Below are positions 5,473 through 61,675 of a stretch of DNA of 64,000 nt, piece after piece; the first letter of the stretch is position 1, and every line of letters begins with the position of its first letter. The DNA is from Parcubacteria group bacterium (lineage in GTDB: Bacteria > Patescibacteriota > Minisyncoccia > Phycocordibacterales > Zambryskibacteraceae), in contig JAQBRH010000002.1 of assembly GCA_028286565.1 (NCBI GenBank), positions 17,876 through 81,875 on the forward strand. Direction: 5' to 3'. A model generated the notes under the pieces. It was not told the DNA's origin. It worked only from the letters and a program-made list of their open reading frames with translations, and did no database searches. Position numbers and translations under genes: made by a program.

Positions 5473-5473
5473 C

Positions 5474-6339: not shown

Positions 6340-6523
6340 AAATTTAAATATAGTACAAAAACAGTAATCTACCAACATTGCTGGCCGTCTCGAGCTGGAA
6401 CCGCGGACGGGCTTGCTTTGCTTGGCGGGTTAGTTACGTTTTGCAGTACTCCGATGATGCGTCTCGTGCGCTTCAAAAAGTGACGAAAGTTATTTAGCTC
6501 TTCTTTTTACAATGATCAGATCT

Positions 6524-7635: not shown

Positions 7636-7678
7636 ATTGTGTAATAAGGATGGAATTACCTAGAAAATATTTCTTAAC

Positions 7679-8008: not shown

Positions 8009-8514
8009 GGGTTAAGTATATATGAATATAACCCTTCTGTTTCAGGAAAGTTTATTTACGTCTAGACACGAAAACACTGCTGAGAATAGCGAGAGTAAGA
8101 ATGATCCCAAGTGCGAACCATAAGGAAATATCTCTCGGATGCCCTATAAGATACCGAATATTAGACAGATATTGAGAAGGTTGCATCAAATCGGCTAGCC
8201 TATTGTTTCTGTATTCATGCTCAGATAGACGTTAACTCAGTATTAATCTTTCTGTACAGACGGTAAGGTCAACACAAGAAAGTTGACCGAGGGCCGTCTC
8301 TTTATCTATGCCTTGGACAGACATAATTGGAAAATAAAAGTCGTTAATGGACCCAATTGCCTCCACAGCCCTCCCGCAGGCCGTGCATTTTTATGTGGTT
8401 GTTGGTATGCATGATATCTATGACGTGAACAGCGGCCATGACTTACAAACTATTTGATATACCTCTACTTCTCCTAAAAAAGCGAGTCATCTAGACTCGT
8501 CCTTAGATGCAACA

Positions 8515-9042
8515 TCATCCTTTCTTAAGAAAAGGCACTGTGATTGAAGCAGCGAGGATAATACCAATACTATTACTTATGAGATCAAGCCACGTATCTT
8601 CGATGGTGGTCGACATTACAAAGCCGAGGTAATGCTGAAGCACAAACTCCAGGATCTCATTCCCCACCCCAAGCGCAGTCACCACAAGTGCCGTAAAAAC
8701 AAAAAATTGGAATTTATTGATTACGACTTTGCTGTCTCTGATCGCCAAGAAACAAACAACTAAAGCTAGAAACCCTCCACAAAGCCCATGCTGAATGCGA
8801 TTTGCAAGAGCTCCATCAAAGCTTTCAACAATGAGGGCACTAAAAAAATTAAGGATGAGGATAGTGACGATCGAGAGGCAAGCACGATGGAAATCTAGCT
8901 TAGGGATTCTCTGTTCAAAAAAGTATGCAACCAGGAAAAGAGAAACTAAATAAAGAATTGGGTAGGCAAAAGAAATACCAAAAAGGAGGGAGATAAGGTG
9001 GGCGGACATAACAGTAGAATACCACATACGAAGTTTGAACAA
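8515..9042 (-). CDS. Integral membrane protein (about 5 TM), hypothetical; hairpin CGAGTC-ATCTA-GACTCG plus T-run downstream on minus strand (8482-8510)
   Basis: Hydrophobicity pattern; terminator-like hairpin after stop. Confidence 0.55.
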   Translation of the reverse strand: MFKLRMWYSTVMSAHLISLLFGISFAYPILYLVSLFLVAYFFEQRIPKLDFHRACLSIVTILILNFFSALIVESFDGALANRIQHGLCGGFLALVVCFLAIRDSKVVINKFQFFVFTALVVTALGVGNEILEFVLQHYLGFVMSTTIEDTWLDLISNSIGIILAASITVPFLKKG

Positions 9043-9044
9043 TT

Positions 9045-9398
9045 TTAAAACTTTCCAGTTAATATAAAAACTAAGCTAATAAGCCCAAAAACAAACGCAA
9101 GCACGACAGTTCCTGAAATAAGATCTTTGCTGCGGCCAATTGCTTCATCGTGCCCAGGATGAAGTTTAGTAAGAGCAATTTCGATAGCCATATTTTGGAT
9201 TTCGGTAACTACAATGAAAAACCAGCAAAATATCAACAGTAGTAACTCTTGAGCTGATAGCGGCCCGAATAAGAAATATACAGCCGGTATTCCGATAATT
9301 CCAAAAACAATCATTTCGAAACGAACAGCGAAGTCCTGAGTGAAAGCATATTTCAAGCCTCGAAAGGGATGAGAAAGTCTATTAATCCAATACTTCAT
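9045..9398 (-). CDS. dgkA: Diacylglycerol kinase / undecaprenol kinase family (DgkA-like) membrane protein
   Basis: 3 TM helices and conserved EIQNMAIEIALTKLHPGHDEAIGRSKDLISGTVVLA resembling prokaryotic DAGK signature. Confidence 0.65.
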   Translation of the reverse strand: MKYWINRLSHPFRGLKYAFTQDFAVRFEMIVFGIIGIPAVYFLFGPLSAQELLLLIFCWFFIVVTEIQNMAIEIALTKLHPGHDEAIGRSKDLISGTVVLAFVFGLISLVFILTGKF

Positions 9399-9406
9399 GA
9401 CATATT

Positions 9407-9961
9407 TTAATTATGTGCTTTCTTTTTCTTAAACATCTTCTTATACTCGCTTCGGCTCATCAGACTTTTGGTATCAGTGAGTCTGTCTAAGAATACCTTG
9501 CCGTCAATATGGTCGAGCTCGTGGAGGATCACTTTGGCAAGCAAACCTTTAGCTTCCATAGTGAACCATTCTCCATTTTTGTCTCGCGCTTTAATGACAA
9601 GTGAAGTAGGTCTCGACACTTTGCCAAAGAGATTTGCATGGGCTACGCTGCCGCATCCTTCGTATTCTGAGAAGGTTTTCTTAGAGACTGAGAGTACCTG
9701 AGGATTTATGAATACACGCAGATCATCTGCCTCTTTATCTTTGTCGATTGTTCTCAGGGAAGTCATCCTTATTTCTGTAAGAAAAATCCTTTGGTTAATA
9801 CCAATTTGAGGAGCTGCGATCCCTACCAAATTTCCATGTCTCATTGAATCAACCAGATCTTTAATGGTCTTTTTAATTTTCTTTGATTTAAAATCCTTCA
9901 CCACAGAAGACTTCCTACGGATGATCGGATTGCCTACTTGGGTTAATTCTTTGATTATCAT
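9407..9961 (-). CDS. def: Peptide deformylase
   Basis: Motifs GIAAPQIGINQRIF, EGCGS, HELDHIDG (HExxH) diagnostic of PDF. Confidence 0.9.
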   Translation of the reverse strand: MIIKELTQVGNPIIRRKSSVVKDFKSKKIKKTIKDLVDSMRHGNLVGIAAPQIGINQRIFLTEIRMTSLRTIDKDKEADDLRVFINPQVLSVSKKTFSEYEGCGSVAHANLFGKVSRPTSLVIKARDKNGEWFTMEAKGLLAKVILHELDHIDGKVFLDRLTDTKSLMSRSEYKKMFKKKKAHN

Positions 9962-9969
9962 TTATTGTT

Positions 9970-10404
9970 TTAAATAAGATGTCTATCTGACTTCCAGACT
10001 ACACCTGAGCCAAAATCTGGAGCTCGAAATAAAGCCTTCTGATCATCCTCACTCATTTTCTGTGCGTACCCGCGTACAAGCTCTAGCTCCTTTGGGTCAG
10101 TAACCTTCCTGAAGCCCGGAGAATCATAGCCAGATCCCGGATCAGATTCCCATTTCAACAATCCCTCACTGTCGTTACCAAAGAGTCTTCCGGACTGTTC
10201 TCTAGACATCCACAGATACGTCTCATACCACCCGTCTATGATAGGTCCCTGAATTAATCTGACACTTTCTTTGTCTAGCCCTGTTTTATAATCTGCTACA
10301 CTCCAAGACCATCCTATTTGTGCTTGAATATCAAATTTAGCAAGGAAAAGTACTACTAAAGCTAATGCAAGCAGGAGCAAATAAAGTGAGTGAGTCTTTT
10401 TCAT
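9970..10404 (-). CDS. Hypothetical secreted protein (signal peptide), 144 aa
   Basis: N-terminal MKKTHSLYLLLLALALVVLFLA signal; AT-rich. Confidence 0.5.
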   Translation of the reverse strand: MKKTHSLYLLLLALALVVLFLAKFDIQAQIGWSWSVADYKTGLDKESVRLIQGPIIDGWYETYLWMSREQSGRLFGNDSEGLLKWESDPGSGYDSPGFRKVTDPKELELVRGYAQKMSEDDQKALFRAPDFGSGVVWKSDRHLI

Positions 10405-48123: not shown

Positions 48124-48519
48124 GTGCTAAGGTATTCTCGGAATCAGTACCCATCTCTATCCCGAGGAAAAGTGACCAGGAAACGAGACCTCTCGAACAT
48201 CACCCTCCGCCATTTCATTCGAGTGAATGACGGAGACGAAGGACCGACGGTAACCGAGCTTCGAAATCTCGGAGTGAAGATCAACCCGCAGATGATGACG
48301 TGCGTGAACGGGTCGAATCTCCAGAAGCATTGCGAGCTCATCCATGCAAGTGAAGAGGTGATCATCGCCCTCCAGACTGATCGGAGGAAAAAACACCTCA
48401 AGTTCGAGGTCTATCGGCTCAAGACCGACGGCAAGGCTCATCTCCACAAGACGAGGCTCGTACCCCGGGTCTCGGCTCCGGAACCGAAGAAGCCCGTCCG
48501 GCGCCCCAAGGCGAACTAA
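48124..48519 (+). CDS. Hypothetical basic protein (131 aa) downstream of tRNA-Glu
   Basis: ORF only. Confidence 0.4.
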   Translation: MLRYSRNQYPSLSRGKVTRKRDLSNITLRHFIRVNDGDEGPTVTELRNLGVKINPQMMTCVNGSNLQKHCELIHASEEVIIALQTDRRKKHLKFEVYRLKTDGKAHLHKTRLVPRVSAPEPKKPVRRPKAN

Positions 48520-48525
48520 CCCGAA

Positions 48526-48918
48526 GTGTTTTCCTTCAAATTTGGTAAAATAGAAGAAGACTCATACGAGAGGTGGAGCATGCGCAAGCAAGATCCGAAA
48601 GGAGTACGGCAGTGGTATGTCCTATGCATCGACACGGACACGAATGATTCGGTCCGGAGGCTGATCTATGAAGAATACGCCCACACGAACAAGCGCTGCG
48701 CGGACAAGGTTCACCGCGATCTGTGGGAGGTAAGCCACGTGGACTATCGGCGGATCATGGCGTCGCGAGTTTCCGGCGGATTCAAGCTCGAAGTCTACTT
48801 CGACACGAGCGACGGCGGGCCGATCCTCCGCCATCACTTCGAGAAAGAGAGCACGTCGGCGGTCGAGTATGTGCGAAAAATGCTCGCCGCTCGTGCGGCC
48901 CGGCCCGCACCCCGATAA
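48526..48918 (+). CDS. Hypothetical protein (130 aa)
   Basis: ORF only. Confidence 0.4.
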   Translation: MFSFKFGKIEEDSYERWSMRKQDPKGVRQWYVLCIDTDTNDSVRRLIYEEYAHTNKRCADKVHRDLWEVSHVDYRRIMASRVSGGFKLEVYFDTSDGGPILRHHFEKESTSAVEYVRKMLAARAARPAPR

Positions 48919-48970
48919 CCGGGGTGTTTTTATTTTAGAAAAGTCTTGCGTGATACAATGAATATCGATC

Positions 48971-50323
48971 ATGCAACTCTTTCCCCGGAAGAAATCTTCT
49001 CCTAGACATATCAATGATGTTTTCTTCGACCCAAAACGGCAGACCCTCGATCTCAGGGAGAAGACATGGAAGCTCGAATTGAGCCGCAACAAAGTTCTCG
49101 GTTTTTTCAGACATCACGTATGGATGTCGCTTGCCTCACTCATCCTCTTTGTCGGCCTTGTGGTTCTGATCTGGGGCAAGCCTTCCCAAACAAAAGCAGA
49201 CACAATTGTTTTCTATCCTTCCTCATGCCTGGGAGGCTGGAAGAATCCCGACCACGCGGCGGGCAAGCCCGAAGGGGAAAGCGGGAAAAGGGATGATGAT
49301 TTTACGAACCAAAACTCCTCAGTCCTTTCGAACTCCTCGTCTCAGATATTCTGCGGAAGTTTTAAAGGAGAGATTCCTCCTGCCACCACTCCCCAAAAGA
49401 TCATCCTTTCTTTCTATTGGAGACTAAAGGCAGTCGAAGACCCCATCCCGGCTCCCGCCGTCATCACCGACGAGAATGCGAACTCGACACTCGAAGTTAT
49501 TCTTGATACTCCTTCTACCACTCCGACGAGCATTACCAATGAAGTTCCCCCTGCGCCCGAACCGGTTCCGGAATCTTCTCCTGAAACTCCAATTGATCCT
49601 GTTTCTTTTTTCCGCACATTTATACCCGTCGCCTACGCTGAGGAAGTTGCCACTACGACCCCAACTTCTACTCCGGAGGTCCTGCCTGCATCGGACGAAT
49701 TTCTGGAAGTATTGTATACCCTCGACGGTTCGGAGTGGGTTTCCCTCGGCAAGATAAAAGCCGCGGATCTTTCGGCGGCCCGCTTCGAGATTCCCGCTTC
49801 AGCGTATTCAAGGTGGACCGATTTGGCAAAACTCCAGATGCAAATACGCTCTCTCCCGACGTTCGATAATCCAGGCGCACTTTACCTCGACGGTATGGTT
49901 CTTGAGGTTTCGTATGGAGAAGTGGACAAGATACAAGAGGCGTATGAGGATCAGAATAAGCCTCATATAAAAGGCGATGATGCCACCACTACACCTCTTC
50001 GCATTACCGCCGGGTTGGATCAAAATAATATAGAGATACTTAAAATATCGAGCGACTCGGACACGTTGGGAGGCATTGATGTTTACAACGCCGTAACGGA
50101 CACGCTTGTGCTAACAGCCAACCCCGATCAAACTTCGTCATACGAAGTTTCGGTCCTCTACTTTACGCCGGGCGTCTATACGCTTCTCCGGCGGGATTCT
50201 CAAACTTCCTGCAATAACCTTTCGCTTAAGGCCTGTAGATTTCAAGAAGGGTTTAAAGATGAAACGATGTTTCAAATCATTGCTCCCGTGGCTTCTTCTA
50301 CACCTGAAGATATGAATCCATAG
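48971..50323 (+). CDS. Type-II membrane protein with large extracellular Pro/Thr-rich and beta-rich domains, hypothetical
   Basis: TM at residues about 50-70, PT-rich linker, no recognised catalytic motifs. Confidence 0.55.
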   Translation: MQLFPRKKSSPRHINDVFFDPKRQTLDLREKTWKLELSRNKVLGFFRHHVWMSLASLILFVGLVVLIWGKPSQTKADTIVFYPSSCLGGWKNPDHAAGKPEGESGKRDDDFTNQNSSVLSNSSSQIFCGSFKGEIPPATTPQKIILSFYWRLKAVEDPIPAPAVITDENANSTLEVILDTPSTTPTSITNEVPPAPEPVPESSPETPIDPVSFFRTFIPVAYAEEVATTTPTSTPEVLPASDEFLEVLYTLDGSEWVSLGKIKAADLSAARFEIPASAYSRWTDLAKLQMQIRSLPTFDNPGALYLDGMVLEVSYGEVDKIQEAYEDQNKPHIKGDDATTTPLRITAGLDQNNIEILKISSDSDTLGGIDVYNAVTDTLVLTANPDQTSSYEVSVLYFTPGVYTLLRRDSQTSCNNLSLKACRFQEGFKDETMFQIIAPVASSTPEDMNP

Positions 50324-50337
50324 TATGATAGAATCAC

Positions 50338-51420
50338 GTGAAGTTAAAAAATAAAAAACTTGCGGCAAGCAGGATCTTTAATGGGATACTCCTTCTCCTT
50401 TTAACTCTGGCTCTCGGCACATATGTTTTGGCTGCCACTCCCAATCCCGGACATCCATGGGCGGAAGTAGGGAACGGAGATTTTCAAGTGACCGGTGCGA
50501 CAGCTATGCGCACATATACGGTTCCCGATGCCAGTGCTACTCTTCTTACCACAAATGCCCTTGTAACTTCCGCTCAGGGCGGGACAGGGAACGGCTTTAC
50601 TAAATTTTCAGGTCCAACGACAGCCGAAAAGACGTTTACTCTGCCCGATGCGAGCGCCACAGTCCTTACATCGAGTGCCGCGGTGACCCTGGCTCAAGGA
50701 GGCACCAATGCGGCGATCACTGCGGTGAACGGGGGCATAGCGTACTCGACCGCTTCCGCCCTGGCTCTGAGTGCCGCCGGATCTGCGGGCCAGATCCTTC
50801 AGTCCGGAGGTGCCGCCGTGCCTACCTGGTCGACCGCGACATATCCGGCCACGGCAGGTACGGCAGGGAATCATCTTGTCTCAAACGGTACAAACTTTGT
50901 CAGTGCTGCTCAAATGCCGGCTTTTTATGTCGGACAAGGCGTGGCACCGACAGCCGCCTCCGTGACCACAAATGTGACGAACGTTACGTATTTTATATAT
51001 TTAGGCAAGGCCACTAAGGCCTTCACGAGCTGCAATGCCGCCTATCGCGTTACGACAGTTCCGGCGGGCACCTTAACATGGGCAGAGATAGGTATTGCTA
51101 AGGGTACTCCCGCCCTCAACGCAGCTAGCGCCATGACTCGCCTTGGATTCGCCGATGTTTCGGGGGTTGTGACAAGCGCCGTGGTCAAGAAAACCGCCAT
51201 CACCGTCTCGTCTGTGACTATTGGAGACGACTTGTGGTTTGCCTGGGGAGGGCAGTATGTTACTACTCAGTGGCAAGGTCGCGCCACGCTTCAAGATGAT
51301 ATCCAAAGCGGCGTAGTGCAGCAGTTTGCCGGCAGATTTTCTACTATGGGCGCTGCGGCAGCCTCTACCTTGAGCGCGAACACGCTCTTGCCCTTAGAAG
51401 TTGCCGTTAGCTGTACCTAA
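50338..51420 (+). CDS. Secreted protein with tandem about 33-aa repeats (TFTLPDASATVLT...AQGGTN), hypothetical
   Basis: Signal anchor; internal repeats YTVPDASATLLTTNALVTSAQGGTGNG / TFTLPDASATVLTSSAAVTLAQGGTNAA. Confidence 0.55.
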   Translation: MKLKNKKLAASRIFNGILLLLLTLALGTYVLAATPNPGHPWAEVGNGDFQVTGATAMRTYTVPDASATLLTTNALVTSAQGGTGNGFTKFSGPTTAEKTFTLPDASATVLTSSAAVTLAQGGTNAAITAVNGGIAYSTASALALSAAGSAGQILQSGGAAVPTWSTATYPATAGTAGNHLVSNGTNFVSAAQMPAFYVGQGVAPTAASVTTNVTNVTYFIYLGKATKAFTSCNAAYRVTTVPAGTLTWAEIGIAKGTPALNAASAMTRLGFADVSGVVTSAVVKKTAITVSSVTIGDDLWFAWGGQYVTTQWQGRATLQDDIQSGVVQQFAGRFSTMGAAAASTLSANTLLPLEVAVSCT

Positions 51421-51421
51421 T

Positions 51422-52408
51422 ATGCGAAGGCTGAATACAGTCATTTCTTGCTACGTGGTATTGCTATTTTTGATACCACAATTTGTTTTCGCAGCACTTT
51501 CGTGCTCGATCACTACCGCAGCCGCATGCACGAGTCCGAGCGCGATCATCTTGCGCATGTCAGCGGCCTCGAATGCGCATGCGGAGCTTCCGGGTCAGTC
51601 GACCGCCGGGTATGCGTCGAACGTCGTCTGCTGTACTGGCGGCACGGGGCTTGGGACGAGTTGCTCGGGTACTTTTGATACCGTCGCAAAACTGTCTGCG
51701 GTAACAAATGCCCATATCCAGCAAAATACTCAAAGTGGATATGCACAGAATGCTTGTATGTCGGTAACATCCGGAACAGTAAGCATTGGATATGTATCAG
51801 GGAGTTGTACAGGCTTCGATACGACACTTGCCTCTATGTCAGCAACGACAAATGCTCAGATGGGCAGTCCAGCGACATATACTACAAGAATTTGCGGATC
51901 AGCCGCGGCCGCCGTGACTCAAAACTTATCCTTCGCGCTTTCAGCGAACACTATTGGATTCGGCACGCTGTCTTCCGCCGCCGCCCGCTATGCCACGTCG
52001 GACTCATTGGGAAGTGCGTCTGAGATCGAAGCCCATACCCTGAGCGTTTCGTCGAATGCGGCAAGCGGATATGCGGTCACCGTTATGGGGGCGACCATGA
52101 CCTCTTCACAAAACGTCTCGAATACCATCACCGCGCTGGCCGCCAACACCGCATCATCCGCAGGTACGGAGCAGTTCGGCCTCCGCATGACGGCCGCGGG
52201 AGGCGTGGGTTCCGTGACTGCGCCGTATGCCGCGGCGGGATTTGCGTATGCGGGTACTGCGGGAACGGCAAGCCAAGTGGCCGCGGCGGGAACAGGGGAC
52301 GGGGTATCGACGGTCTACTCAGTTCGATATCTTGCAAACGTCGGCGCAACAACGGAATCCGGGACATACTCTTCGAGTCTTGTATATGTGGCCACAGCCA
52401 ATTTTTGA
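51422..52408 (+). CDS. Secreted Cys-rich surface protein, paralog A (shared C-terminal beta-rich domain ending SLVYVATANF)
   Basis: C-terminal about 170 aa alignable to 52485..53534 product (ANTIGFGTL.S.AARYA...L.VS.NA..GY..TV.GAT.TS.QNV.NTITA...YLAN...TTE.GTY..SLVYVATANF). Confidence 0.6.
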   Translation: MRRLNTVISCYVVLLFLIPQFVFAALSCSITTAAACTSPSAIILRMSAASNAHAELPGQSTAGYASNVVCCTGGTGLGTSCSGTFDTVAKLSAVTNAHIQQNTQSGYAQNACMSVTSGTVSIGYVSGSCTGFDTTLASMSATTNAQMGSPATYTTRICGSAAAAVTQNLSFALSANTIGFGTLSSAAARYATSDSLGSASEIEAHTLSVSSNAASGYAVTVMGATMTSSQNVSNTITALAANTASSAGTEQFGLRMTAAGGVGSVTAPYAAAGFAYAGTAGTASQVAAAGTGDGVSTVYSVRYLANVGATTESGTYSSSLVYVATANF

Positions 52409-52484
52409 TTCTTATCCCCAGTGTGTCGGAATGTTTAAGCTTTTGTGATAATATTTAGAAGTAAATAGCCCCTTAATCAATCAG

Positions 52485-53534
52485 ATGAAATCTCCATTTA
52501 ATAAAGTGTTTTACATCTTTGCATGTCTCCTTCTAATTTTTTCAAACGTCTCTCTCGCTTCCGCCGCCGCCTTGACCTCTTTCTCGGATACAATGTCCAG
52601 ACAAACCATCAGCACGAACTCGAGCCATGTCCTCAAATTTACTACCCCCACCGGTGTGGCGATCAGCCAGACAGTGAAATACACCTTCCCGACCGGTTTC
52701 AATTTCACTAGCTCAACCTTCGCAAACGTCACTATCAGCTGGGGTACCACTACCGGCCTCGAAAACTCGACTACTACCGCCTCTTCTAACTCCGCTACGG
52801 CTTGGGGCGCGGCCTTCTCCGGTTCGAACAATGTAGTGTTGACCTTGACCGCCCCTTCAGGCGCTGGAAATAACATTCCCGCCGGCAAGATCATGATCGT
52901 TACCATCGCAAGCACCAATTCCGTCAACCCCTCGGGCGCCACTACCTATTCTATCGGCGTTATCGGCAGCTTCGGCGATACGGGAACGACCACGGTAAAT
53001 ATTATCGGAGACGATACGGTCGCAGTTTCCGGCACGGTCCCTCAGGCCATCACCTTTGCCATCTCCGCTAATACCATCGGTTTCGGCACCCTCGATTCCG
53101 GCGCCGCACGATATGCAAATACGACCACAGGTTCAGCCTCTGACGTCGTTGCTCACACCCTGGCCGTTTCAACCAATGCGCCTACCGGCTATACCATTAC
53201 TGTCCAAGGAGCAACTCTTACCTCTCAACAAAATGTGGCGAACACCATCACGGCCATAGGCGCAAGCCCCGCTACGTCGAGCACGGGGAATGAGCAGTTC
53301 GGTATCTACGCCTCCAAGGCCGGAGGCACGAACGGTACCATCGCTTCTCCGTACGTTACCGTTTCGTCGTTCGGATATAACGCCACCGCGGGCTCTGCGG
53401 CGACCTTTGCTTCCGGTACGAGCGCCACCGCCACCGAGACCTACTCCCTCCACTATTTGGCGAACATCGCCCCTACCACCGAAGCCGGCACATACGCCGC
53501 AAGCCTCGTTTATGTAGCCACTGCGAACTTTTAG
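52485..53534 (+). CDS. Secreted surface protein, paralog B (signal peptide ending AAALTSFSD; same C-terminal domain)
   Basis: See paralog A; signal region resembles SipW/TasA-type cleavage context (tentative). Confidence 0.6.
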   Translation: MKSPFNKVFYIFACLLLIFSNVSLASAAALTSFSDTMSRQTISTNSSHVLKFTTPTGVAISQTVKYTFPTGFNFTSSTFANVTISWGTTTGLENSTTTASSNSATAWGAAFSGSNNVVLTLTAPSGAGNNIPAGKIMIVTIASTNSVNPSGATTYSIGVIGSFGDTGTTTVNIIGDDTVAVSGTVPQAITFAISANTIGFGTLDSGAARYANTTTGSASDVVAHTLAVSTNAPTGYTITVQGATLTSQQNVANTITAIGASPATSSTGNEQFGIYASKAGGTNGTIASPYVTVSSFGYNATAGSAATFASGTSATATETYSLHYLANIAPTTEAGTYAASLVYVATANF

Positions 53535-53546
53535 GGCCTACGCCGC

Positions 53547-54515
53547 ATGAAAATCTCCACTTTTATCCGAATCGTGCTGGTAAGTCTTTTCGTGGTCGTG
53601 CCTATGAGAAGGACAATGGCTTTAACTGTTTCTCCGGCCAAGATCGAGATCAGCGCCGATCCCGGTACGACGGTCAGCGGAGAATTTTTAGTGGTAAACG
53701 AAGAAGGGGGGATCAAAACCTTTTATACTTCGTCCGAGAATTTTGAGGCCCAAGGGGAAACCGGCACGCCGAGTTTTGTGCCGGGGGAGAAGGACCTCGC
53801 GTCCTGGACCAAGGTCATTTCGGAAGTGACTCTGGGGAAGGGAGAGCAAAGGAAAATACCTTTTACTATTTCTGTTCCCAATGGAGCTGAAGCGGGGGGC
53901 CATTTTGCGGCAATTTTCCTCAGTACCATTCCACCGGCGAATTCTTCTAATCAGGTGTCGGTGGGATCGAAGATCGGCATCCTCCTCCTTCTGCGAGTTA
54001 GCGGTCCTTTGAAAGAGGGTGGGGGACTCCTCGAATTTTCAACGGAAAATAATAAGCATTTTTATACATCGCTACCGGTGCTCTTTTCCTATAGGTTTCA
54101 AAATTCCGGAAATGACCGCGTAAAGCCGAACGGCACCTTGAAGATCAAGAATTCTCTCTGGCTGACCTCGTATGAAGGATCGGGAAATCCGAGCGAAGGA
54201 AATATTCTTCCGGGAAGCGTCAGAAAATTCAGCCTTGAATGGAAGAAAAATGAGACCTCAGGAGACCCGGTCGGATTCATGGGTGCGCTAAAGAATGAAT
54301 GGAAAAACTTTGCTTTTGGGTTCTATACCGCCCATTTGGACCTTCAGTACGGCTCTACGCCCGATACCGCTTCGCTTTCCACGACGTTCTTCGTGCTCCC
54401 ATGGCACGTCCTGTTGATCGGGCTCGGCATCCTTATCGTTCTTCTCTTTATTTTCTCTCGAATCGTTAAGCGATATAACCGATGGATCATAGAGAAATCT
54501 CGAAGCGCGCTCTAG
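53547..54515 (+). CDS. Surface protein with N-terminal signal, beta-sandwich-like domain and C-terminal TM anchor plus basic tail (DUF916/CscA-like architecture, tentative)
   Basis: Signal; LTVSPAKIEISADPGTTVSGEFLVVNEEGG pilus-chaperone-like strand pattern; C-terminal WHVLLIGLGILIVLLFIFSRIVKRYNRW. Confidence 0.45.
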   Translation: MKISTFIRIVLVSLFVVVPMRRTMALTVSPAKIEISADPGTTVSGEFLVVNEEGGIKTFYTSSENFEAQGETGTPSFVPGEKDLASWTKVISEVTLGKGEQRKIPFTISVPNGAEAGGHFAAIFLSTIPPANSSNQVSVGSKIGILLLLRVSGPLKEGGGLLEFSTENNKHFYTSLPVLFSYRFQNSGNDRVKPNGTLKIKNSLWLTSYEGSGNPSEGNILPGSVRKFSLEWKKNETSGDPVGFMGALKNEWKNFAFGFYTAHLDLQYGSTPDTASLSTTFFVLPWHVLLIGLGILIVLLFIFSRIVKRYNRWIIEKSRSAL

Positions 54516-55426
54516 CCCTTCTTGTCTTTGGTGTCCTAGGCTTCTTCGCTCGCTCGGCATCAGCGCAAGTTATTACCGTGCATAGCACGACGACGGTAAG
54601 CATCACCGCCGAAGTGATCGATCCGAATGCTCCCACGCCAACTCCGACCCCAACCCCCACTCCTGCTCCCGCCGGCGGAGGGGGAGGCGGGGGCGGGGGA
54701 GTTTCTATGGCCGGACAGGTAAAATTTTCCGGGAAGGCCTATCCTGGAACTCTTGTGACATTGCTTGAGAACGCGCGCATCGTAGGCACGACGAGGTCGG
54801 AGAGCGATGCGAGTTTTGCTGTAATGCTCGACGGAGTGAATACCGGGGCGTATGTGTTCAGCCTCTTTTCCGAAGATTATCAAGGCAACAGATCTTCCCT
54901 TGTCACATTTTCCGTCGCCGTATCCGGAGCCGGGATCACGTATGTGTCGAATATTTTTATCGCCCCGACCATTAGCGTGGATAAACAGCAGGTGAAGCAG
55001 GGAGATCCGCTGAAGGTGTTCGGGCAGAGTACTCCGGGCGCGGATATCGGCCTGACAGTGCATTCAACGAACGAGCTTTCGTATACCACCCACACGGACT
55101 CCCAGGGTATTTATCTTTTTACCGTCGATTCATCAAAGCTTGAATTCGGCGATCATTCCACCCAATCCCGGGCATTCCTCAACACTGACGAAAGCTTTCT
55201 CTCCAAGTCCCTCAGTTTCCAGGTCGGACTAAAGAATATCCTGGCGGTGGCCGGGTTCGGTCTCAAGGGGGATCTTAACGGCGACGGCAAGGTAAATCTC
55301 ATCGACTTCTCTATCATGGCGTATTGGTATAAGCGGGCTAATTTCCCCCTAAAGGTCGATTTGAACACCGACGGCAAGATAAATATTACGGATTTCTCGA
55401 TCATGATCTATAACTGGACCGGCTAA
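54482..55426 (+). CDS. Secreted dockerin-domain protein (PT/poly-Gly linker, two Ca-binding dockerin repeats at C-terminus)
   Basis: GDLNGDGKVNLIDFSIMAYWY and VDLNTDGKINITDFSIMIYNW match type-I dockerin duplicated F-hand repeats (DxNxDGxINxxD). Confidence 0.75.
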   Translation: MDHREISKRALALLVFGVLGFFARSASAQVITVHSTTTVSITAEVIDPNAPTPTPTPTPTPAPAGGGGGGGGGVSMAGQVKFSGKAYPGTLVTLLENARIVGTTRSESDASFAVMLDGVNTGAYVFSLFSEDYQGNRSSLVTFSVAVSGAGITYVSNIFIAPTISVDKQQVKQGDPLKVFGQSTPGADIGLTVHSTNELSYTTHTDSQGIYLFTVDSSKLEFGDHSTQSRAFLNTDESFLSKSLSFQVGLKNILAVAGFGLKGDLNGDGKVNLIDFSIMAYWYKRANFPLKVDLNTDGKINITDFSIMIYNWTG

Positions 55427-55427
55427 T

Positions 55428-56315
55428 ATGAAAAAAATACTTATACTCTGTTTTTTGGCACTGGCGCCTTTTATTGTTCGGGCCGCGGAGTTTTCAAGCG
55501 TGGTGAATTCCGGGAAAAACGTCGAGGCGCGTACTGCCTTCTCGGTAGAGCTTTTACTCGAACCCAAAGGCACGGTGAACGGCATACAAGGAACGGTCAT
55601 CCTGCCGGTCGGGCTTTCGGTCGCAGATATACGCTTTGACCGGTCGATCATTCCCTTGTGGGTAGAGAGTCCTCATGCGATCCGGTCCGGGGATCATGAA
55701 GAGATCGTATTTTCCGGACTTGTTCCCGGAGGATTTTCAGGTTTGCTGAGTCCGTATTATCACGGATCCCGCCCGGGAACGCTGTTCACGATCCGCGCGA
55801 CGGCTTTGAACGAAGGCGTATATGAGATCTTATTTAAGGGCATGACATATCTCCAAGATGGCCAAGGCACGGAGTCATCCGTTCCGCCCTTGACGGCGAG
55901 CATAACCGTAGGTCCGCACAGAGGCGGGGAGGCGGAGAAACGCATCGACACCACCGTCCCGGAGGCGTTCTTGCCCGTGGTATCAAAGTCTCCGCTCATC
56001 TTCAACGATCGCTGGTTCGTCTCTTTTGACACCAAGGATACCGAATCAGGGATCAATTATTATGAAGTGGCGGAGGTGCAGCCGGGCTCCTTCGGCGAGC
56101 CGCTGTGGAAGCGCGCCGCAAGTCCCTACGAGCTCAAGGATCAAACCCTCGAGAGCGTCGTCTATGTCCGAGCCGTAGACCATGACGGCAATATGATAAC
56201 CGAAGAAGTCCGTCCCCAGAATAAAGGAACAAAAGCACATCCGTGGATTATTTCAGGTATACTTTTGTTAGCGATCCTCCTCTTTATTTCGCGGAGAAAG
56301 CTATATGAAAAATAA
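55428..56315 (+). CDS. Membrane-anchored cohesin-like domain protein (signal, cohesin-like beta-sandwich, Ig-like domain, C-terminal TM + basic tail)
   Basis: N-terminal about 140-aa domain paralogous to that of the next gene and consistent with cohesin fold (GIQGTVILPVGLSVADIRFD...GTLFTIRATALNEGVYEI); C-terminal HPWIISGILLLAILLFISRRKLYEK. Confidence 0.55.
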   Translation: MKKILILCFLALAPFIVRAAEFSSVVNSGKNVEARTAFSVELLLEPKGTVNGIQGTVILPVGLSVADIRFDRSIIPLWVESPHAIRSGDHEEIVFSGLVPGGFSGLLSPYYHGSRPGTLFTIRATALNEGVYEILFKGMTYLQDGQGTESSVPPLTASITVGPHRGGEAEKRIDTTVPEAFLPVVSKSPLIFNDRWFVSFDTKDTESGINYYEVAEVQPGSFGEPLWKRAASPYELKDQTLESVVYVRAVDHDGNMITEEVRPQNKGTKAHPWIISGILLLAILLFISRRKLYEK

Positions 56316-58017
56316 GATCTATCTGCTCGGGTTCCTTCTCCTGCCATACTTCGCGCATGCTGCAACCCTTTCCATTCTCCCGGCTACGGGTTCATATGGC
56401 AGCGGCGATGTCTTCCAAGCTTCCGTGTATGTTTCGAGCCCTCTCGAGGCCATCAATGCGGTTCAAGGCACGATCTCATTCCCGGAGACGAACCTGGAGG
56501 TCGTTTCCTTGTCCAAAATGGGCTCTATTGTCGGATTGTGGGTTCAGGAGCCGACATTCTCGAATCTCGCGGGAGTGATCAACCTCGAGGGCGTAGTGCT
56601 GAATCCGGGCTTTATCGGCTCATCCGGCAAGGTGCTCACCGTCACATTTAGGGCCAGGGCCGCGGGCTCGGTGCCTGTGGTATTCAGTTCGAGTTCGGTC
56701 CTCGCGAACGACGGCCAGGGGACGAATGTTCTCAAGGGCTTCACGGGATCAACCTATATAATCGGCGATACGACTACCCAGCAGAGCGCCGCGGAAGCAA
56801 CGAGCGCTCTCGGAGAGCTCGGGACGCCCGGATCGATCGTCATAACCTCGAGCACCCATCCGGATCCCTCCAAGTGGTATAACATTTCTGATGCATCGCT
56901 TGCGTGGAAGCTGCCGGCCGGGGCGACTGGGGTGAGATATGCGTTCGATCATAATGCCCGGACGATTCCCTCAGTCGATGTCCCCGGACTTATTTCCTCA
57001 AAAACCTTTTCTAATTTAGAGGATGGAGTGTGGTATATGCATGTTCGAATAAAGAACGACAAGGGATGGGGGGCGGTTGCGCATTTTAGGGTGGCGATCG
57101 ATACTGTGCCCCCATTATCTTTCAAGATCTCTTTCCCTCACGGGTCTATATCGGATGATCCGCGGCCGGTCGTCTATTTCAATACGACAGATAAGGGATC
57201 GGGTATCAGCCACTACGCCGTGCGAGTGGGAGAAAATGATCTTCCGATCGTCGAGGAAAGAGATATTTCTTCAAACCCATATGCTGTTCCTTCCCAGCTT
57301 CCGGGCAAACGGGCTATTCTTGTCCAGGCAGTCGACAAGGCGGGCAACCTGACTACCGAAACGAGCGAGTTCGAAGTTCAGTCGATCGCTCCGCCGAAGA
57401 TCATCGACTTCCCGACCTCAATGGTCGAAGGAGATAGCCTGCGCATCCGAGGTACTACGTACATAGGCGCTACTATCAATGCATATGTGAAGAACGAAAA
57501 GGGAGAAATCGATACGGAGGCCACTAAAAGCACTGGCCTCGGAGATTTCGGCTTCATGTGGTCAAAACATTTGGACCCGGGAGTGTACATCGTGACTTTC
57601 GACGCGATTGATATCCGCGGAGCCACCAGCATACGTACCGAGCCTCTGACCCTCGAGGTAAAGCGCAGAGCTCTCTTTGCCATCGGGTCCTTGATCGTCG
57701 ACTATGTGTCGCTCGCTCTGTTCCTCGTCTTCTGCATTGCCGGCCTTGCTTTCCTCGGCTGGTATCTCCTGTCAAAAATTATTTTCTTCAAGACGAAGCT
57801 CCGCAAGGATCTCCACAAGATGGATCATGATTTCCATAAAGCCTTTGCTCTCTTGGCCAAAGATTTCGAGGATGAGATCAAGCACCTCGAGGGAGTCCGT
57901 TCAATGCGGGAATTGACCCAGGAAGAAGAGAGGATCGTCAAAAAAATGCGCCAGAACCTCGACGACGCCGAGGAATATCTCGAAGAAGAGCTGAGGGGCA
58001 TCGAAAATAAATTATAG
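56305..58017 (+). CDS. Membrane-anchored cohesin-like domain protein 2 with Ig-like middle domains, TM segment and cytoplasmic coiled-coil tail
   Basis: AVQGTISFPETNLEVVSLSKMGSIVGLWVQEP...GKVLTVTFRARAAGSVPVVFSS cohesin-like domain; TM LALFLVFCIAGLAFLGWYLL; charged coiled-coil C-terminus. Confidence 0.55.
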   Translation: MKNKIYLLGFLLLPYFAHAATLSILPATGSYGSGDVFQASVYVSSPLEAINAVQGTISFPETNLEVVSLSKMGSIVGLWVQEPTFSNLAGVINLEGVVLNPGFIGSSGKVLTVTFRARAAGSVPVVFSSSSVLANDGQGTNVLKGFTGSTYIIGDTTTQQSAAEATSALGELGTPGSIVITSSTHPDPSKWYNISDASLAWKLPAGATGVRYAFDHNARTIPSVDVPGLISSKTFSNLEDGVWYMHVRIKNDKGWGAVAHFRVAIDTVPPLSFKISFPHGSISDDPRPVVYFNTTDKGSGISHYAVRVGENDLPIVEERDISSNPYAVPSQLPGKRAILVQAVDKAGNLTTETSEFEVQSIAPPKIIDFPTSMVEGDSLRIRGTTYIGATINAYVKNEKGEIDTEATKSTGLGDFGFMWSKHLDPGVYIVTFDAIDIRGATSIRTEPLTLEVKRRALFAIGSLIVDYVSLALFLVFCIAGLAFLGWYLLSKIIFFKTKLRKDLHKMDHDFHKAFALLAKDFEDEIKHLEGVRSMRELTQEEERIVKKMRQNLDDAEEYLEEELRGIENKL

Positions 58018-58046
58018 AAAAAATGCCGCACCACTACGGTACGGCA

Positions 58047-58634
58047 TTACACAGGCAGGATGGCATCGATAAAGCCCCAGTCAAGCGCCTCTTCTGCGGT
58101 CAGAATGTGATCCTTGCGCAGGAGGGTATGAAGGTCTTCATCAGTTTTTCCAACCGCGCTTACGCGCCGGAGCAAAAGTTCATGAGTGTAGGCCCAGGCC
58201 TCCTCGAGATCCGGTATCACCTTGTTGTCCAGGAACAGCTTAAACGCATCTGTATCCATGAACGGTCGGATAGAAACAGGATACGTTTGAGTATTGTAAT
58301 GGAAGAGATACTTCGATTCGGGTCTCCCAACGCGAATGTGACAGGCTTGAAGAATGAAGGCTGCGGCAGAGTATGCTCGGCCGGTTACCACTCCTATTAC
58401 CGCTTGATCGCTTTTCTCGATAGTCTTGCATATCTGCTGGGAGCACAAGAAGCTACCGCCCTTAGAATTTATCTGCAGGGTAACCACCGGATAGGCGCGT
58501 GAGGCCTGGCGGCTGAGTAATTGGTCGAATTGCTGTGTTCGGGCCAGGTTGACTCGGCTGTTGAGCCTGATTCTTTGCTTGCGTGGGACGGATTGTAGAG
58601 TAGCTAGAATCGCGTCCTTGCGTATGCACAGCAT
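58047..58634 (-). CDS. ClpP-like serine peptidase (S14 fold), standalone paralog 2; start at internal Met with SD GGAGGA (ORF-track start 58898 runs through terminator/promoter region)
   Basis: VTLQINSKGGSFLCSQQI, VVTGRAYSAAAFIL, YLFHYN, ILTAEEALDWGFIDAIL parallel ClpP blocks; GGAGGAAACAATG at 58634. Confidence 0.6.
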   Translation of the reverse strand: MLCIRKDAILATLQSVPRKQRIRLNSRVNLARTQQFDQLLSRQASRAYPVVTLQINSKGGSFLCSQQICKTIEKSDQAVIGVVTGRAYSAAAFILQACHIRVGRPESKYLFHYNTQTYPVSIRPFMDTDAFKLFLDNKVIPDLEEAWAYTHELLLRRVSAVGKTDEDLHTLLRKDHILTAEEALDWGFIDAILPV

Positions 58635-58951: not shown

Positions 58952-61675
58952 ATGTCAGAGACTGGATCTTTTTCTAATCCCCACGAAGAACTCGCCTACC
59001 TTCGCTCCAAAGTCCTTGAGACAGAGAAGCGCCTCGAGAAGTTCGGCGTCGAACCTATCCGCCCGGATATCATCCGAAGCACGGTCAGTGATTTCAAGGA
59101 TTCCCATGCCCGCCTCGTGACTCCGGAGAAACAAGCGGCGGCATCGACTCAAGCCGAAACTCTCCTCGGCGCAACGGACGAGAAGCAGCTGAAAGAAATG
59201 CTTCGCATTACGGAGACAAAGGGCGTGCTCCAAGCCCTCTCCACGATCGAGAAGATGCGCGGCTGGAAGCTTGAGGACGATTTCCACGATCACTTGGTCG
59301 GCCTCATCACGCACGGCCTGCCTCCGCAGGGGATAAAAGAAAAAGGCCCGGAGTACAAAGCGCTTCACATGAGCCTCTATGAGGTCATACTCCCGAAGAC
59401 CGTCGAATCGGATAAGCCTTTTGCCGAATTGGTCCGCAGCATGGAACAGCTCTATGCAGGGCTTCTCTCCATCGGAAGCGATAAGGACACGGAGAACGAC
59501 TATATGGTCTTTGAGATCGCGAATCCCGATGGGGAAGAAGACACTGCGATCTTTGTCTCCGTGCCTACGGATCGCAAACAGCTTTTCGAACGGCAGGTCC
59601 TTTCGATCTTTCCGACCGTCCGTCTCAACCCTCGAGAGCGTGACTACAATATCTTTAGCGACGGAGGCCGGGCCTTCGGCGCGAGTGCGAACCTCGCCTC
59701 GTTCGGAGCATATCCCTTGCAGACAGCCGAGGCCTTTGGAGAAGATCCGCTGAATGTGATCCTCCAGAGCTTCGCCAAGATCCCAAAGGCCGGATCGGGC
59801 GCGGCGCTCCAGATCATTTTTAAGCCGAGGGGAACATCGTATACGGACTCATATCAAAAAGCCCTCGAGAAGATCCAAAAGGGCACCAAGCCCGAAGAGG
59901 CGCTCGAGCAAAGCACCTTCGGCGGGGAATTCAAGAAAGCCGTCGGTGAGATATTTTTCTCCATAGACAAGAAAAAAGAAGACAAGGCGCCGATCATCCC
60001 CGAAGACATCATCCTCAGCATCAAGAAAAAGCTCGAAAGCCCCATCGTCGAGACGAACATCCGCTTTGCCGTCTCGGCTCCGATTGAAAGCGACGCTCGG
60101 CACCTCTTGGACCACCTCGAGTCGGCCTTTAACCAATTCGAGAGCTCAGGCAAGAACCGGTTCGAATGGGAGCGGGTGCAGGCGAACAAGGAAAGCGATT
60201 TTTATCGGGCCTTCACCTTCCGGCTTTTCAGAGAGAGCGATGTTGTCCCTTTGAACCTCAAAGAACTCTCGGCCATCCTCCATTTCCATACCGAGTCCCT
60301 CATCGAAACCTCGACCTTGAAGCGAAGCTCGGCCAAAGGCGCGCCGCTCCCCATGGGCGTACCGACCGAAGGCACATTCCTCGGAGTGAATAAATTCCAG
60401 AACGGCGAGATGAAGGTGGCCATGAAGGACGAAGACCGGCTCAGGCATTTCTATGCGATCGGCCAGACCGGGACGGGAAAGTCGACCCTTCTCAAGAACA
60501 TGATCATCCAGGACATTATCCGCGGAGACGGCGTCTGCATGATCGATCCGCACGGAGTGGATATCCAAGATGTGCTCGCGAACATCCCGCAGCATCGGAT
60601 CGACGATGTGATCTACTTCGACCCGGCCTCGACCGAGCGCCCGATGGCCCTCAACATGCTCGAATACAACCCGAAGTATCCGGAGCAAAAGACCTTTGTG
60701 GTGAACGAACTTTTCTCTATCTTCCAAAAGCTCTATGGAGGCAATCCCGAATCGATGGGCCCGATGTTCGAGCAATACTTTAGGAACGCGGCTATGCTCG
60801 TGATCGAAGATCCAGAGACGGGGTCAACCCTCCTCGACATCTCGAGAGTGCTTGCGAACAAGCAGTATAGACAGCTGAAGATCAGCCGCTGCAAGAACCC
60901 GATCGTCGTTCAGTTTTGGACCGAAGTGGCGGACAAGGCGGGCGGAGAAGCATCGCTCGCGAACATCGTCCCGTACATCACCTCGAAGTTCGACGTCTTC
61001 CTGGCGAACGACATTATGCGTCCCATCATTGCCCAGGAAAGGTCCTCGTTCGATTTTCGGGACATCATGGACAAGAAAAAGATCCTCCTCGTCAATCTTT
61101 CCAAGGGCCGCCTCGGAGACATCAACGCGAACCTGATCGGCCTGATCCTCGTCGGAAAGATCCTCATGGCCGCCCTTTCAAGGGTTGATTCGATCGGACA
61201 GGGCATGCCCCCGTTCTATCTATACATAGATGAATTCCAAAACGTCACCACGAACTCGATAGCCACCATCCTTTCGGAGGCGCGCAAATATAAGCTGTCG
61301 CTGAACATCGCTCATCAATACATCGCCCAGCTTGAAGACAACATCAAGAACGCCGTATTCGGAAACGTCGGCACGCTCGCGGTTTTCAGAGTGGGAACTG
61401 ACGACGCCGAGTACCTTTCAAAGCAATTCGAGCCCGTCTTTACCGCAAACGATATAGTGAATATCGATAACAGGAATGCGTATATAAAAATGCTCGTCGA
61501 CGGCCGGCCGGTCGCTCCGTTCAATATCGAGACCCTGCCTCCTCCTCCCGGACATCCGGATCAAATAGAGACCATCAAGCGATTATCATTCGGCAAATAC
61601 GGAGGGGATAAGGCGGAGATCGAAGCTCGTATCATGGAAAAGTATAAAAAAGCCGATCCTCCTCCCGCTATATAA
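58952..61675 (+). CDS. Large P-loop ATPase of the FtsK/HerA/VirB4-TraC (DUF87-like) superfamily with about 490-aa N-terminal domain of unknown function
   Basis: Walker A AIGQTGTGKSTL, Walker B FYLYIDEFQN, arginine-finger region ARKYKLSLNIAHQ; terminator hairpin GGGGCCGAC-GATG-GTCGGCCCC at 61683-61704. Confidence 0.65.
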   Translation: MSETGSFSNPHEELAYLRSKVLETEKRLEKFGVEPIRPDIIRSTVSDFKDSHARLVTPEKQAAASTQAETLLGATDEKQLKEMLRITETKGVLQALSTIEKMRGWKLEDDFHDHLVGLITHGLPPQGIKEKGPEYKALHMSLYEVILPKTVESDKPFAELVRSMEQLYAGLLSIGSDKDTENDYMVFEIANPDGEEDTAIFVSVPTDRKQLFERQVLSIFPTVRLNPRERDYNIFSDGGRAFGASANLASFGAYPLQTAEAFGEDPLNVILQSFAKIPKAGSGAALQIIFKPRGTSYTDSYQKALEKIQKGTKPEEALEQSTFGGEFKKAVGEIFFSIDKKKEDKAPIIPEDIILSIKKKLESPIVETNIRFAVSAPIESDARHLLDHLESAFNQFESSGKNRFEWERVQANKESDFYRAFTFRLFRESDVVPLNLKELSAILHFHTESLIETSTLKRSSAKGAPLPMGVPTEGTFLGVNKFQNGEMKVAMKDEDRLRHFYAIGQTGTGKSTLLKNMIIQDIIRGDGVCMIDPHGVDIQDVLANIPQHRIDDVIYFDPASTERPMALNMLEYNPKYPEQKTFVVNELFSIFQKLYGGNPESMGPMFEQYFRNAAMLVIEDPETGSTLLDISRVLANKQYRQLKISRCKNPIVVQFWTEVADKAGGEASLANIVPYITSKFDVFLANDIMRPIIAQERSSFDFRDIMDKKKILLVNLSKGRLGDINANLIGLILVGKILMAALSRVDSIGQGMPPFYLYIDEFQNVTTNSIATILSEARKYKLSLNIAHQYIAQLEDNIKNAVFGNVGTLAVFRVGTDDAEYLSKQFEPVFTANDIVNIDNRNAYIKMLVDGRPVAPFNIETLPPPPGHPDQIETIKRLSFGKYGGDKAEIEARIMEKYKKADPPPAI

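Follow-up and report, generated by a model that had tools for sequence, protein, structure and literature searches.

A probable Pam-type pilus operon core in a Parcubacterial genome, with a candidate membrane-anchored chaperone related to WxLIP

What kind of surface structure is encoded where two secreted paralogues adjoin a membrane-tethered, chaperone-like protein in a presumably monoderm cell? Bacteria of the candidate phyla radiation (CPR) account for a large share of bacterial diversity, and contact structures are central to their biology because most of them appear to live attached to other cells. We addressed this question in a 64 kb stretch of DNA (the window) from a Parcubacteria-group metagenome-assembled genome (MAG), in which genes for two proteins, P1 (51422-52408; 328 amino acids, aa) and P2 (52485-53534; 349 aa), are followed by one for a candidate membrane-anchored chaperone (53547-54515). 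A first-pass annotation had read these genes as a possible fibre or adhesin module of a monoderm cell, and the CPR affiliation of the organism is in keeping with the monoderm envelope. We conclude that the region is probably the core of a Pam-type pilus operon, encoding a Sec-exported, usher-less fibre that would be built by chaperone-assisted donor-strand exchange.

At its core this is not a new finding, since the Pam pilus, a system of this kind, has already been described in a preprint and in curated NCBIfam models. It was reported in 2026 from one species of Saccharimonadia (10.64898/2026.03.03.709456). PamA and PamB were identified in filaments of the CPR parasite Ca. Mycosynbacter amalyticus by electron cryomicroscopy (cryo-EM). 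In these pilins, one linker strand connects an N-domain sandwich of nine strands to a C-domain with a truncated immunoglobulin (Ig) fold, and this C-domain takes the neighbour's linker (10.64898/2026.03.03.709456). The pam operon also encodes PapD/FimC-like chaperones with a C-terminal transmembrane helix (PamC and PamD), a domain-only tip pilin (PamT) and a terminator with a transmembrane anchor (PamR). The Pam pilins of this species also include PamE. The family was reported chiefly from Saccharimonadia and Microgenomatia, and neither Parcubacteria nor WxL, DUF916 or cohesin is named in the report (10.64898/2026.03.03.709456). The present analysis may go beyond this literature in the Parcubacterial distribution, in the link between the chaperone and WxLIP, in the distinction of tip from shaft by a linker motif, and in a dockerin/cohesin-like candidate anchor.

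The elements at the centre of this reading are the following.

51422..52408, + strand: P1, Pam-type subunit and candidate tip or adhesin; signal peptide aa 1-24, N-domain aa ~25-160, acceptor C-domain aa ~167-328 (51920-52405)
52485..53534, + strand: P2, candidate Pam-type shaft pilin; signal peptide aa 1-27, N-domain beta-sandwich aa 28-172, linker aa 173-188, acceptor C-domain aa 189-349
53019..53039, + strand: candidate donor strand VAVSGTV (aa 179-185) in the P2 linker DDTVAVSGTV, proposed from motif conservation and from the role of the linker in PamA/PamB cryo-EM
53547..54515, + strand: PamC/PamD-like and WxLIP-like candidate chaperone of 322 aa; signal peptide, two Ig-like domains, transmembrane helix, conserved basic tail
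53925..54011, + strand: low-confidence chaperone hairpin, candidate complementing strand(s), aa 127-155, QVSVGSKIGILLLLRVSGPL, delimited by model confidence and motifs
54402..54512, + strand: C-terminal transmembrane helix of the chaperone (aa ~286-304; modelled helix 286-321) and its conserved cytoplasmic tail, SRIVKRYNRWIIEKSRSAL

As had been noticed at first pass, P1 and P2 diverge at their N-termini and have a C-terminal domain in common. BLASTP aligned their C-terminal halves only (53% identity and 70% positives over 189 aa, E 2e-51) and found no similarity between the N-terminal ~160 aa; the motifs quoted for the shared domain (ANTIGFGTL, HTL.VS.NA..GY..TV.GAT and SLVYVATANF) are present. 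Over this C-domain, the NCBIfam model NF058581 (CPR_Pam_pilin_C, 'Pam pilus system pilin subunit') gave 70.9 bits for P1 and 65.7 bits for P2, above its curated cut-off of 55 bits. With the donor-strand exchange seen by cryo-EM for this family in a CPR bacterium, these scores support the earlier proposal of donor-strand fibre subunits. Signal peptides could be recognized by eye in both sequences (MRRLNTVISCYVVLLFLIPQFVFA and MKSPFNKVFYIFACLLLIFSNVSLASA, each cleaved before A). Neither protein matched Pfam, and searches of PDB sequences with the two pilins, the chaperone and the family profiles A1, A2 and A4 returned nothing meaningful; PamA and PamB are either missing from the PDB copy searched or too divergent.

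The C-domain belongs to a large family. A search of the full library retrieved 444 cluster representatives (E<=1e-3), with the domain always at the extreme C-terminus of proteins of 169-2748 aa, large ones among them bearing RCC1, Laminin_G_3 and Gly_rich_2 domains. P2 and the candidate chaperone are identical to JWN89_92 and JWN89_93 of a Parcubacteria-group MAG. P2 has 400 homologues, of which every named one is from CPR/Patescibacteria (Parcubacteria, Paceibacterota, Wolfebacteria, Portnoybacteria, Uhrbacteria, Falkowbacteria and Minisyncoccia); a lone 'Polynucleobacter' MAG label among them probably reflects mis-binning. With the same pilin domain and tethered chaperone in Parcubacteria, and with hundreds of relatives, Pam-like fibres are likely to be much more widespread than reported.

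The structure of P2 was modelled with AlphaFold2 from a 60-sequence alignment (pLDDT 91.2). Its pTM of 0.61 is as expected of two domains on a flexible tether. The model comprises an N-terminal signal helix (4-20), ten strands within aa 31-174 and a beta C-domain (aa 189-346), and the intervening stretch (aa 175-188) lacks structure and has a lower confidence (79-83) than any other part of the mature chain. In the family alignment, conservation falls from the C-domain (0.74) through the linker (0.68) to the N-domain (0.60), which agrees with the Pam study, where conservation is said to be highest in the donated linker and in the site that binds it; D177, V179, V185 and Q187 of P2 are invariant or nearly so. 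By analogy with PamA/PamB, the fold of the P2 C-domain would be incomplete until the next subunit supplies its linker.

The linker carries a motif that sets one size class of the family apart. We sought the pattern [DN]D.V.V.[ST]A.V just upstream of the C-domain and found it in 41 of 55 C-domain proteins of 300-399 aa, as opposed to 4 of 70 with at least 400 aa and 4 of 21 with 260 aa or fewer. The corresponding P2 motif, DDTVAVSGTV, spans aa 176-185. A relaxed 7-mer, [VIL].[VIL][STNG][AG].[VIL], occurs in 119 of 120 pilins within the linker (aa 170-199, e.g., VAVSATV) and in 118 of 120 chaperones within the disordered hairpin, as VSVGAK[VI] and L[RK]VSG[DE]I. The alternating V.V.G.V pattern resembles the N-terminal extensions of chaperone-usher pilins. 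By analogy with PamA/PamB, VAVSGTV would act as the donor strand. Since P2 has this conserved, donor-strand-like linker, we read it as a shaft subunit that is both donor and acceptor.

P1 differs from P2 in this very region: it has no [DN]D.V.V.A.V linker and reads SAAAAVTQ there, with a four-residue deletion. Its N-domain (51494-51901) is Cys-rich, with eight Cys and three internal repeats (..LS..TNAH..Y..C), and recurs in further C-domain proteins (P0248, P0246, P0351, P0337 and the product of 6206-7225 in the related locus L072), once with an RCC1 propeller. A syntenic locus (L001) has a 1100-aa C-domain protein without the linker motif in the place of P1, followed by three P2-like pilins. 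Because P1 combines the missing donor linker with a Cys-rich N-domain, we infer that it is a distal tip or adhesin subunit and an acceptor only. It is tip-like by this logic and is not an orthologue of PamT, given its extra N-domain and its score of 33.9 bits against a cut-off of 240.

The third gene, 53547-54515, encodes a protein that has a signal peptide, an ectodomain rich in beta structure and, at its C-terminus, a hydrophobic helix (aa ~286-304) with a basic tail after it. Its AlphaFold2 model (pLDDT 89.6) consists of two beta-sandwich domains and a helix (286-321), with a disordered hairpin (pLDDT 51 for aa 131-140 and <50 for aa 135-139). In a Foldseek search of the PDB, the top matches were to WxLIP of Enterococcus faecium (E 3e-12 to 1.5e-10 for 9i1y and 9i25), ahead of the pilus chaperones CfaA, CsuC, FimC, Caf1M and EcpB (target-normalised TM-score 0.48-0.56); RbmA was a poorer match (TM-score ~0.35). 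WxLIP is the new name of the DUF916+DUF3324 protein of Firmicutes WxL clusters. A membrane-tethered chaperone of DUF916/CscA-like topology had been proposed at first pass, and the two-Ig model with its transmembrane helix and its best PDB match supports that description.

Profile comparisons extended this relationship. The reference set comprised 68 Firmicutes loci from a genome scan for the WxLIP motif NQIDK...YFDLK, and provided 56 WxLIP and 57 small WxL proteins, examples of which were confirmed by Pfam at 136-226 bits. Over its full length, the chaperone family aligned with WxLIP in hhalign with a probability of 93% (E 2.6e-7, 305 columns). With signal peptide and transmembrane helix removed, the core still scored 39.8 (E 5e-5, 210 columns), as compared to 10-18 for column-shuffled controls and 20 for the reversed profile. 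The chaperone itself reached only 13.1 bits (E 0.1) on Pfam WxLIP_PGBD (PF06030; gathering score 27.3) and did not match WxLIP_HBD (PF11797), whereas a genuine WxLIP scores 135.6 and 172.9 bits on the two models; 51 of 70 chaperone homologues matched PF06030 weakly, the best at 2.7e-4. On these sequence profiles, the remote homology of chaperone and WxLIP appears real, and the chaperone is not a member of the WxLIP family, because the Pfam cut-offs are unmet. In the hhalign alignment, the chaperone hairpin coincides with a WxLIP loop that is reported to become ordered upon WxL binding and to complete the WxL sandwich (PMC10599100; PDB 9i1y, 9i25).

The cytoplasmic tail of the chaperone drew our attention separately. 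The segment KRYNRWII.QAR (54459-54512) is almost invariant, which is unexpected for a plain membrane anchor: among 70 homologues, Y310 and N311 are invariant, and I314, I315 and A318 nearly so. Such conservation may reflect binding to a partner in the cytoplasm or a role in sorting.

From these parts, a mechanism can be proposed. The chaperone would be anchored in the cell membrane with its basic tail inside, and a strand of its hairpin (VSVGSKI / LRVSGPL) would cap the open groove of each freshly exported C-domain. The P2 linker DDTVAVSGTV would then take the place of the chaperone strand in the subunit added just before, completing that subunit's C-domain, so that subunits would join at the cell-proximal end. 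P1, having an acceptor domain without a donor linker, would be confined to the distal end as tip or adhesin. At the other end, growth may be stopped and the fibre held by the product of the next gene, a dockerin protein whose mature N-terminus (TTVSITAEV and a flexible PT/G linker) resembles a donor strand, and whose dockerin could bind the cohesin-like, membrane-anchored products of the two genes that follow.

54482..55426, + strand: dockerin protein, candidate pilus-base adaptor or terminator; signal peptide, strand TTVSITAEV, PT/G-rich linker, Ig-like domains, dockerin aa 262-309
54590-54616, + strand: strand TTVSITAEV of the dockerin protein (aa 37-45)
55428..56315, + strand: candidate membrane anchor of 295 aa; signal peptide, cohesin-like N-domain, second beta domain, C-terminal transmembrane helix
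56305..58017, + strand: candidate membrane anchor of 570 aa; signal peptide, cohesin-like N-domain, Ig-like domains (Big_13), transmembrane helix, cytoplasmic coiled-coil-like tail

The dockerin of 54482-55426 is of type I and scored 36.4 bits on Dockerin_1 (aa 262-309; gathering score 22.9), and the protein also matched Big_6. Its mature chain starts with QVITVHSTTTVSITAEVIDP, continues with a linker rich in PT and Gly and ends with Ig-like domains and the dockerin, which places the donor-like motif directly past the signal peptide. The relaxed 7-mer was found in 36 of 120 homologues of this protein, mostly at aa 20-39, again directly past the signal peptide; a stricter form of the motif is 20-fold denser within the family's first 75 residues than elsewhere (2.89 versus 0.14 per 1000 residues). 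The products of 55428-56315 and 56305-58017 and their orthologues have an N-domain in common, and 56305-58017 also carries Big_13 (E 2.7e-5). Synteny holds for 56305-58017 in all loci examined and for 54482-55426 in 7 loci. Taken together, the sequence features suggest that 54482-55426 could be a donor-only terminator or adaptor that docks onto cohesin-like membrane anchors.

Within a genome, the N-terminal strand of the dockerin protein can be set beside the pilin linker.

Window: pilin linker VAVSGTV, dockerin-protein N-terminus VSITAEV
L001: pilin linker VQVNAIV, dockerin-protein N-terminus LNVNAIV
L071: pilin linker VTVSASV, dockerin-protein N-terminus VNITASV
L072: pilin linker LSVTVQT, dockerin-protein N-terminus LTITVTA
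L075: pilin linker VVTTATV, dockerin-protein N-terminus VTITATV
L076: pilin linker VAVTGTV, dockerin-protein N-terminus VTISAYV

The summed identity of these pairs is 21, compared to a permutation mean of 15.8, and was reached by 25 of 720 permutations (n=6, with registers picked by eye).

A similar mode of attachment to the cell surface is known from cellulosomes. Here, a bona fide type I dockerin is encoded beside two membrane-anchored proteins with sub-threshold cohesin matches. Unlike cellulosomes, the cluster contains no carbohydrate-active enzymes, its anchors are transmembrane helices rather than SLH domains or sortase, and the proposed cargo would be the base of a pilus. If true, a dockerin-cohesin anchor would divide the job of PamR between two proteins.

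How closely does the locus resemble the Pam pili already described? Both come from CPR lineages, with Sec signal peptides, several paralogous pilins per operon and two-domain pilins with a linker, whose C-domain passes NF058581. Both also have a two-Ig-domain chaperone with a transmembrane helix at the C-terminus and no usher, PamC and PamD being compared by their description. The host here is a member of the Parcubacteria/Paceibacteria, there is a single chaperone gene as opposed to two, and the ATP-synthase neighbourhood of pam operons is absent among the flanking open reading frames (ORFs) scanned.

Several results weigh against a Pam-type operon. On the PamT model NF058579, P1 and P2 scored 33.9 and 21 bits against the cut-off of 240, leaving the locus with no recognisable PamT orthologue. 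No gene here matched the NCBIfam models for PamC, PamD or PamR, and in the place of a PamR-like gene stand the conserved dockerin protein and the two cohesin-like transmembrane proteins. Cohesin identity is itself weak, resting on sub-threshold sequence matches: Pfam Cohesin (PF00963) did not match the window proteins 55428-56315 and 56305-58017 and gave 17.5 bits (E 0.005), under the 24.1 cut-off, for the L072 orthologue of 56305-58017, and a profile of eight N-domain sequences had cohesins as its three best matches among PDB sequences at a sub-threshold E of 0.08-0.17. The strict donor motif occurs in just 26 of 120 dockerin-protein homologues, and pilin and dockerin motifs of one genome match only weakly, which, given the sample size and hand-picked registers, is suggestive only. 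The whole P2 model retrieved generic two-domain Ig adhesins of MSCRAMM or integrin type from the PDB (Foldseek, TM-score ~0.25), a search that is uninformative because inter-domain orientation dominates it.

The chief alternative is a surface complex of WxL/Csc type, in which P1 and P2 would be displayed singly, each permanently attached to the cell through strand complementation by the WxLIP-like protein, and no polymer would form. Such static, strand-complemented display has been proposed for the WxL clusters of Firmicutes (PMC10599100), which are found in Enterococcus, Lactobacillales, Listeria and Bacillus. The candidate chaperone is nearest to WxLIP both in structure (E 3e-12) and in core profile (E 5e-5), and its disordered hairpin sits where the WxLIP loop completes the WxL sandwich. 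The gene content also follows the logic of the commonest WxL cluster, with two proteins having a common C-terminal domain (PMC10599100) beside one two-Ig protein with a transmembrane anchor, and the C-domain family runs from domain-only to giant payload proteins, as do short and long WxL proteins. In hhalign, C-domain and WxL were colinear over 133 columns (score 22.1, E 0.009; column shuffles 7-14), with corresponding motifs (FG; G[WY].[LI].V; Y...L.[WY]). This score is barely above that of unrelated beta-sandwich profiles, which reach 19.5. Pfam WxL (PF13731) had no match at E<=1 in 60 members of the C-domain family, as against 222-226 bits for genuine WxL proteins, and HMM (hidden Markov model) searches of PDB sequences with the C-domain did not retrieve a WxL chain. 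The C-domain has GYTITV and LVYVATANF where WxL proteins have Trp-x-Leu motifs. In the literature, WxL proteins appear as surface proteins bound to peptidoglycan and not as fibres (PMC10599100). Our C-domain passes a model of pilins that have been seen as cryo-EM filaments. A static model also gives no role to the donor-like linker, which is specific to the ~350-aa class. On this evidence, we consider WxL-type display unlikely.

Two further explanations deserve consideration, both of them far less probable. P1 and P2 could be ordinary Ig-like adhesins or S-layer-associated proteins with a common envelope-binding C-domain, next to an unrelated transmembrane protein and without strand exchange, as the MSCRAMM- and integrin-type matches of whole P2 might suggest. 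We hold this to be very unlikely in view of the match to a curated Pam pilin family, the far better fit of the transmembrane protein to pilus chaperones and WxLIP than to generic Ig proteins, the strict conservation of gene order, and the strand motif common to pilin linker and chaperone hairpin. The first-pass annotation had also likened the C-domain to SCPU/Csu-type pilins or TasA, which would imply usher-dependent or chaperone-free donor-strand polymers such as TasA/camelysin-like fibres. The general principle of beta-rich secreted subunits and donor-strand logic is the same, and the proteins that the chaperone matches in structure include CsuC. The likeness found no sequence link in Pfam or NCBIfam, in that neither Peptidase_M73/TasA nor SCPU models matched P1, P2 or 60 homologues at E<=1. 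Neither an usher nor a SipW-type signal peptidase was found among the genes scanned, an outer-membrane usher in particular being unmatched in Pfam and NCBIfam among nine cluster proteins. CPR bacteria are not known to possess an outer membrane, which an usher needs. TasA, SCPU and usher families are rejected for want of matches, and we regard this last explanation as the most improbable of all.

The Pam-type reading nevertheless shares its logic with chaperone-usher pili (Pap/Fim, CFA/I with CfaA, archaic Csu, Caf1 and Ecp). Common to both are the boomerang fold of a two-Ig-domain chaperone, an alternating-hydrophobic donor strand with a small residue (V.V.G/A.V), and the succession of a tip that only accepts, a shaft that donates and accepts, and a terminator that only donates. 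In contrast to those pili, the proposed system has neither outer membrane nor usher, its chaperone is tethered to the membrane, its donor strand would be an internal linker rather than an N-terminal extension, and the pilins have an extra N-domain and no detectable sequence similarity.

These observations can be joined into a wider proposal: an acceptor-only adhesin (P1), a donor-and-acceptor shaft (P2) and a donor-only dockerin terminator, with a cohesin-dockerin joint to two membrane proteins in place of a transmembrane helix on the terminator, and with Pam and WxL/WxLIP (Csc) systems as one ancient monoderm family of chaperone-strand complementation. As a whole, we put this forward tentatively and consider it rather doubtful. 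If the dockerin-cohesin anchor and the division into tip, shaft and terminator are true, they would explain how a donor-strand fibre is ended and retained without usher or sortase. The relationship of chaperone and WxLIP ties Pam-like fibres to the WxL clusters of enterococci, lactobacilli and Listeria, whose mechanism is debated, and if Pam and WxL are one family, WxL proteins may exchange strands too. C-domain proteins of giant size that carry RCC1 or lectin domains would provide a catalogue of candidate host-recognition adhesins.

Among the Firmicutes loci, many small WxL proteins encoded beside WxLIP (e.g., in L005, L024 and L055) have a strand of the form SNGxVxF past the signal peptide, found in 34 of 57 by regular expression and in more by eye. 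It is followed by a Pro/Asp/Thr-rich linker of 30-40 residues and then by the WxL domain. This layout is like that of a pilin with an N-terminal donor extension and raises the question of strand exchange among WxL proteins.

The three core genes belong to a unit of eight co-directional genes (48971-58017) that overlap or are spaced by at most 76 bp; its ORFs were found at the coordinates given here, all on the + strand. Terminator-like hairpins lie at both ends of the unit as pattern matches of a consensus scan, and the upstream one likely closes the preceding transcription unit. The remaining features of the unit are listed below.

48907..48927, + strand: terminator-like hairpin upstream of the unit, a consensus-scan pattern match with an 8-bp stem, 6 GC pairs and a T-run
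48971..50323, + strand: first gene of the unit in the ORF list, 450 aa with an N-terminal transmembrane segment, 14 bp before the next gene
50338..51420, + strand: secreted repeat protein of 360 aa, with 'PNPGH' after the signal peptide and repeated T.T.PDASAT.LT segments
58022..58048, no strand assigned: terminator-like hairpin directly 3' of the last gene, a consensus-scan pattern match with a 12-bp stem

The product of 48971-50323 had no notable match in Pfam, PHROG or NCBIfam, and that of 50338-51420 matched no family in Pfam, NCBIfam or PHROG scans. A 'tail fibre-like protein' is mentioned in pam neighbourhoods (10.64898/2026.03.03.709456); such a label is unsupported for 50338-51420, because a PHROGs scan of the flanking cluster proteins gave no match. 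The cluster in L072 is headed by a protein (4862-5524) with the same N-terminal PNPGH motif.

Gene order is conserved beyond this genome. Pilin gene(s), chaperone, dockerin protein, a protein of ~291-324 aa and one of ~491-591 aa, the last two with a C-terminal transmembrane helix, follow one another in the window as well as in six other CPR loci, whose labels include one Wolfebacteria and one Gracilibacteria. The chaperone gene adjoins the pilin genes in all loci compared. In the whole window, local HMMs found two C-domain proteins and one chaperone-like protein. On a metagenome contig (L075, 3-2035), the chaperone gene is split, with its N-terminal half and the pilin on the strand opposite its C-terminal half, and the pilin/chaperone junction looks like an inversion or an assembly chimera.

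The flanks consist of chromosomal housekeeping genes (mraW, two penicillin-binding proteins, a MurF-like ligase, folD, mreB and aminoacyl-tRNA synthetases), with cell-wall genes of dcw type upstream of the unit and a VirD4-like ATPase downstream. The latter, a VirD4/TraD-type coupling ATPase of 907 aa (TraG-D_C, T4SS-DNA_transf) at 58952-61675, directly follows the operon and was rejected as a member of the system. Because it shows no synteny with the cluster in related loci, it is probably unrelated to the pilus unit and part of Patescibacteria type IV secretion. Between folD and the operon (48124-48918) lie two adjacent small, basic ORFs (131 and 130 aa) with GTG starts and of no obvious family. 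Elsewhere in the window, positions 6001-10000 have a G+C content of ~0.40, as compared to ~0.52-0.55 across most of the window, and may be a foreign or otherwise atypical segment.

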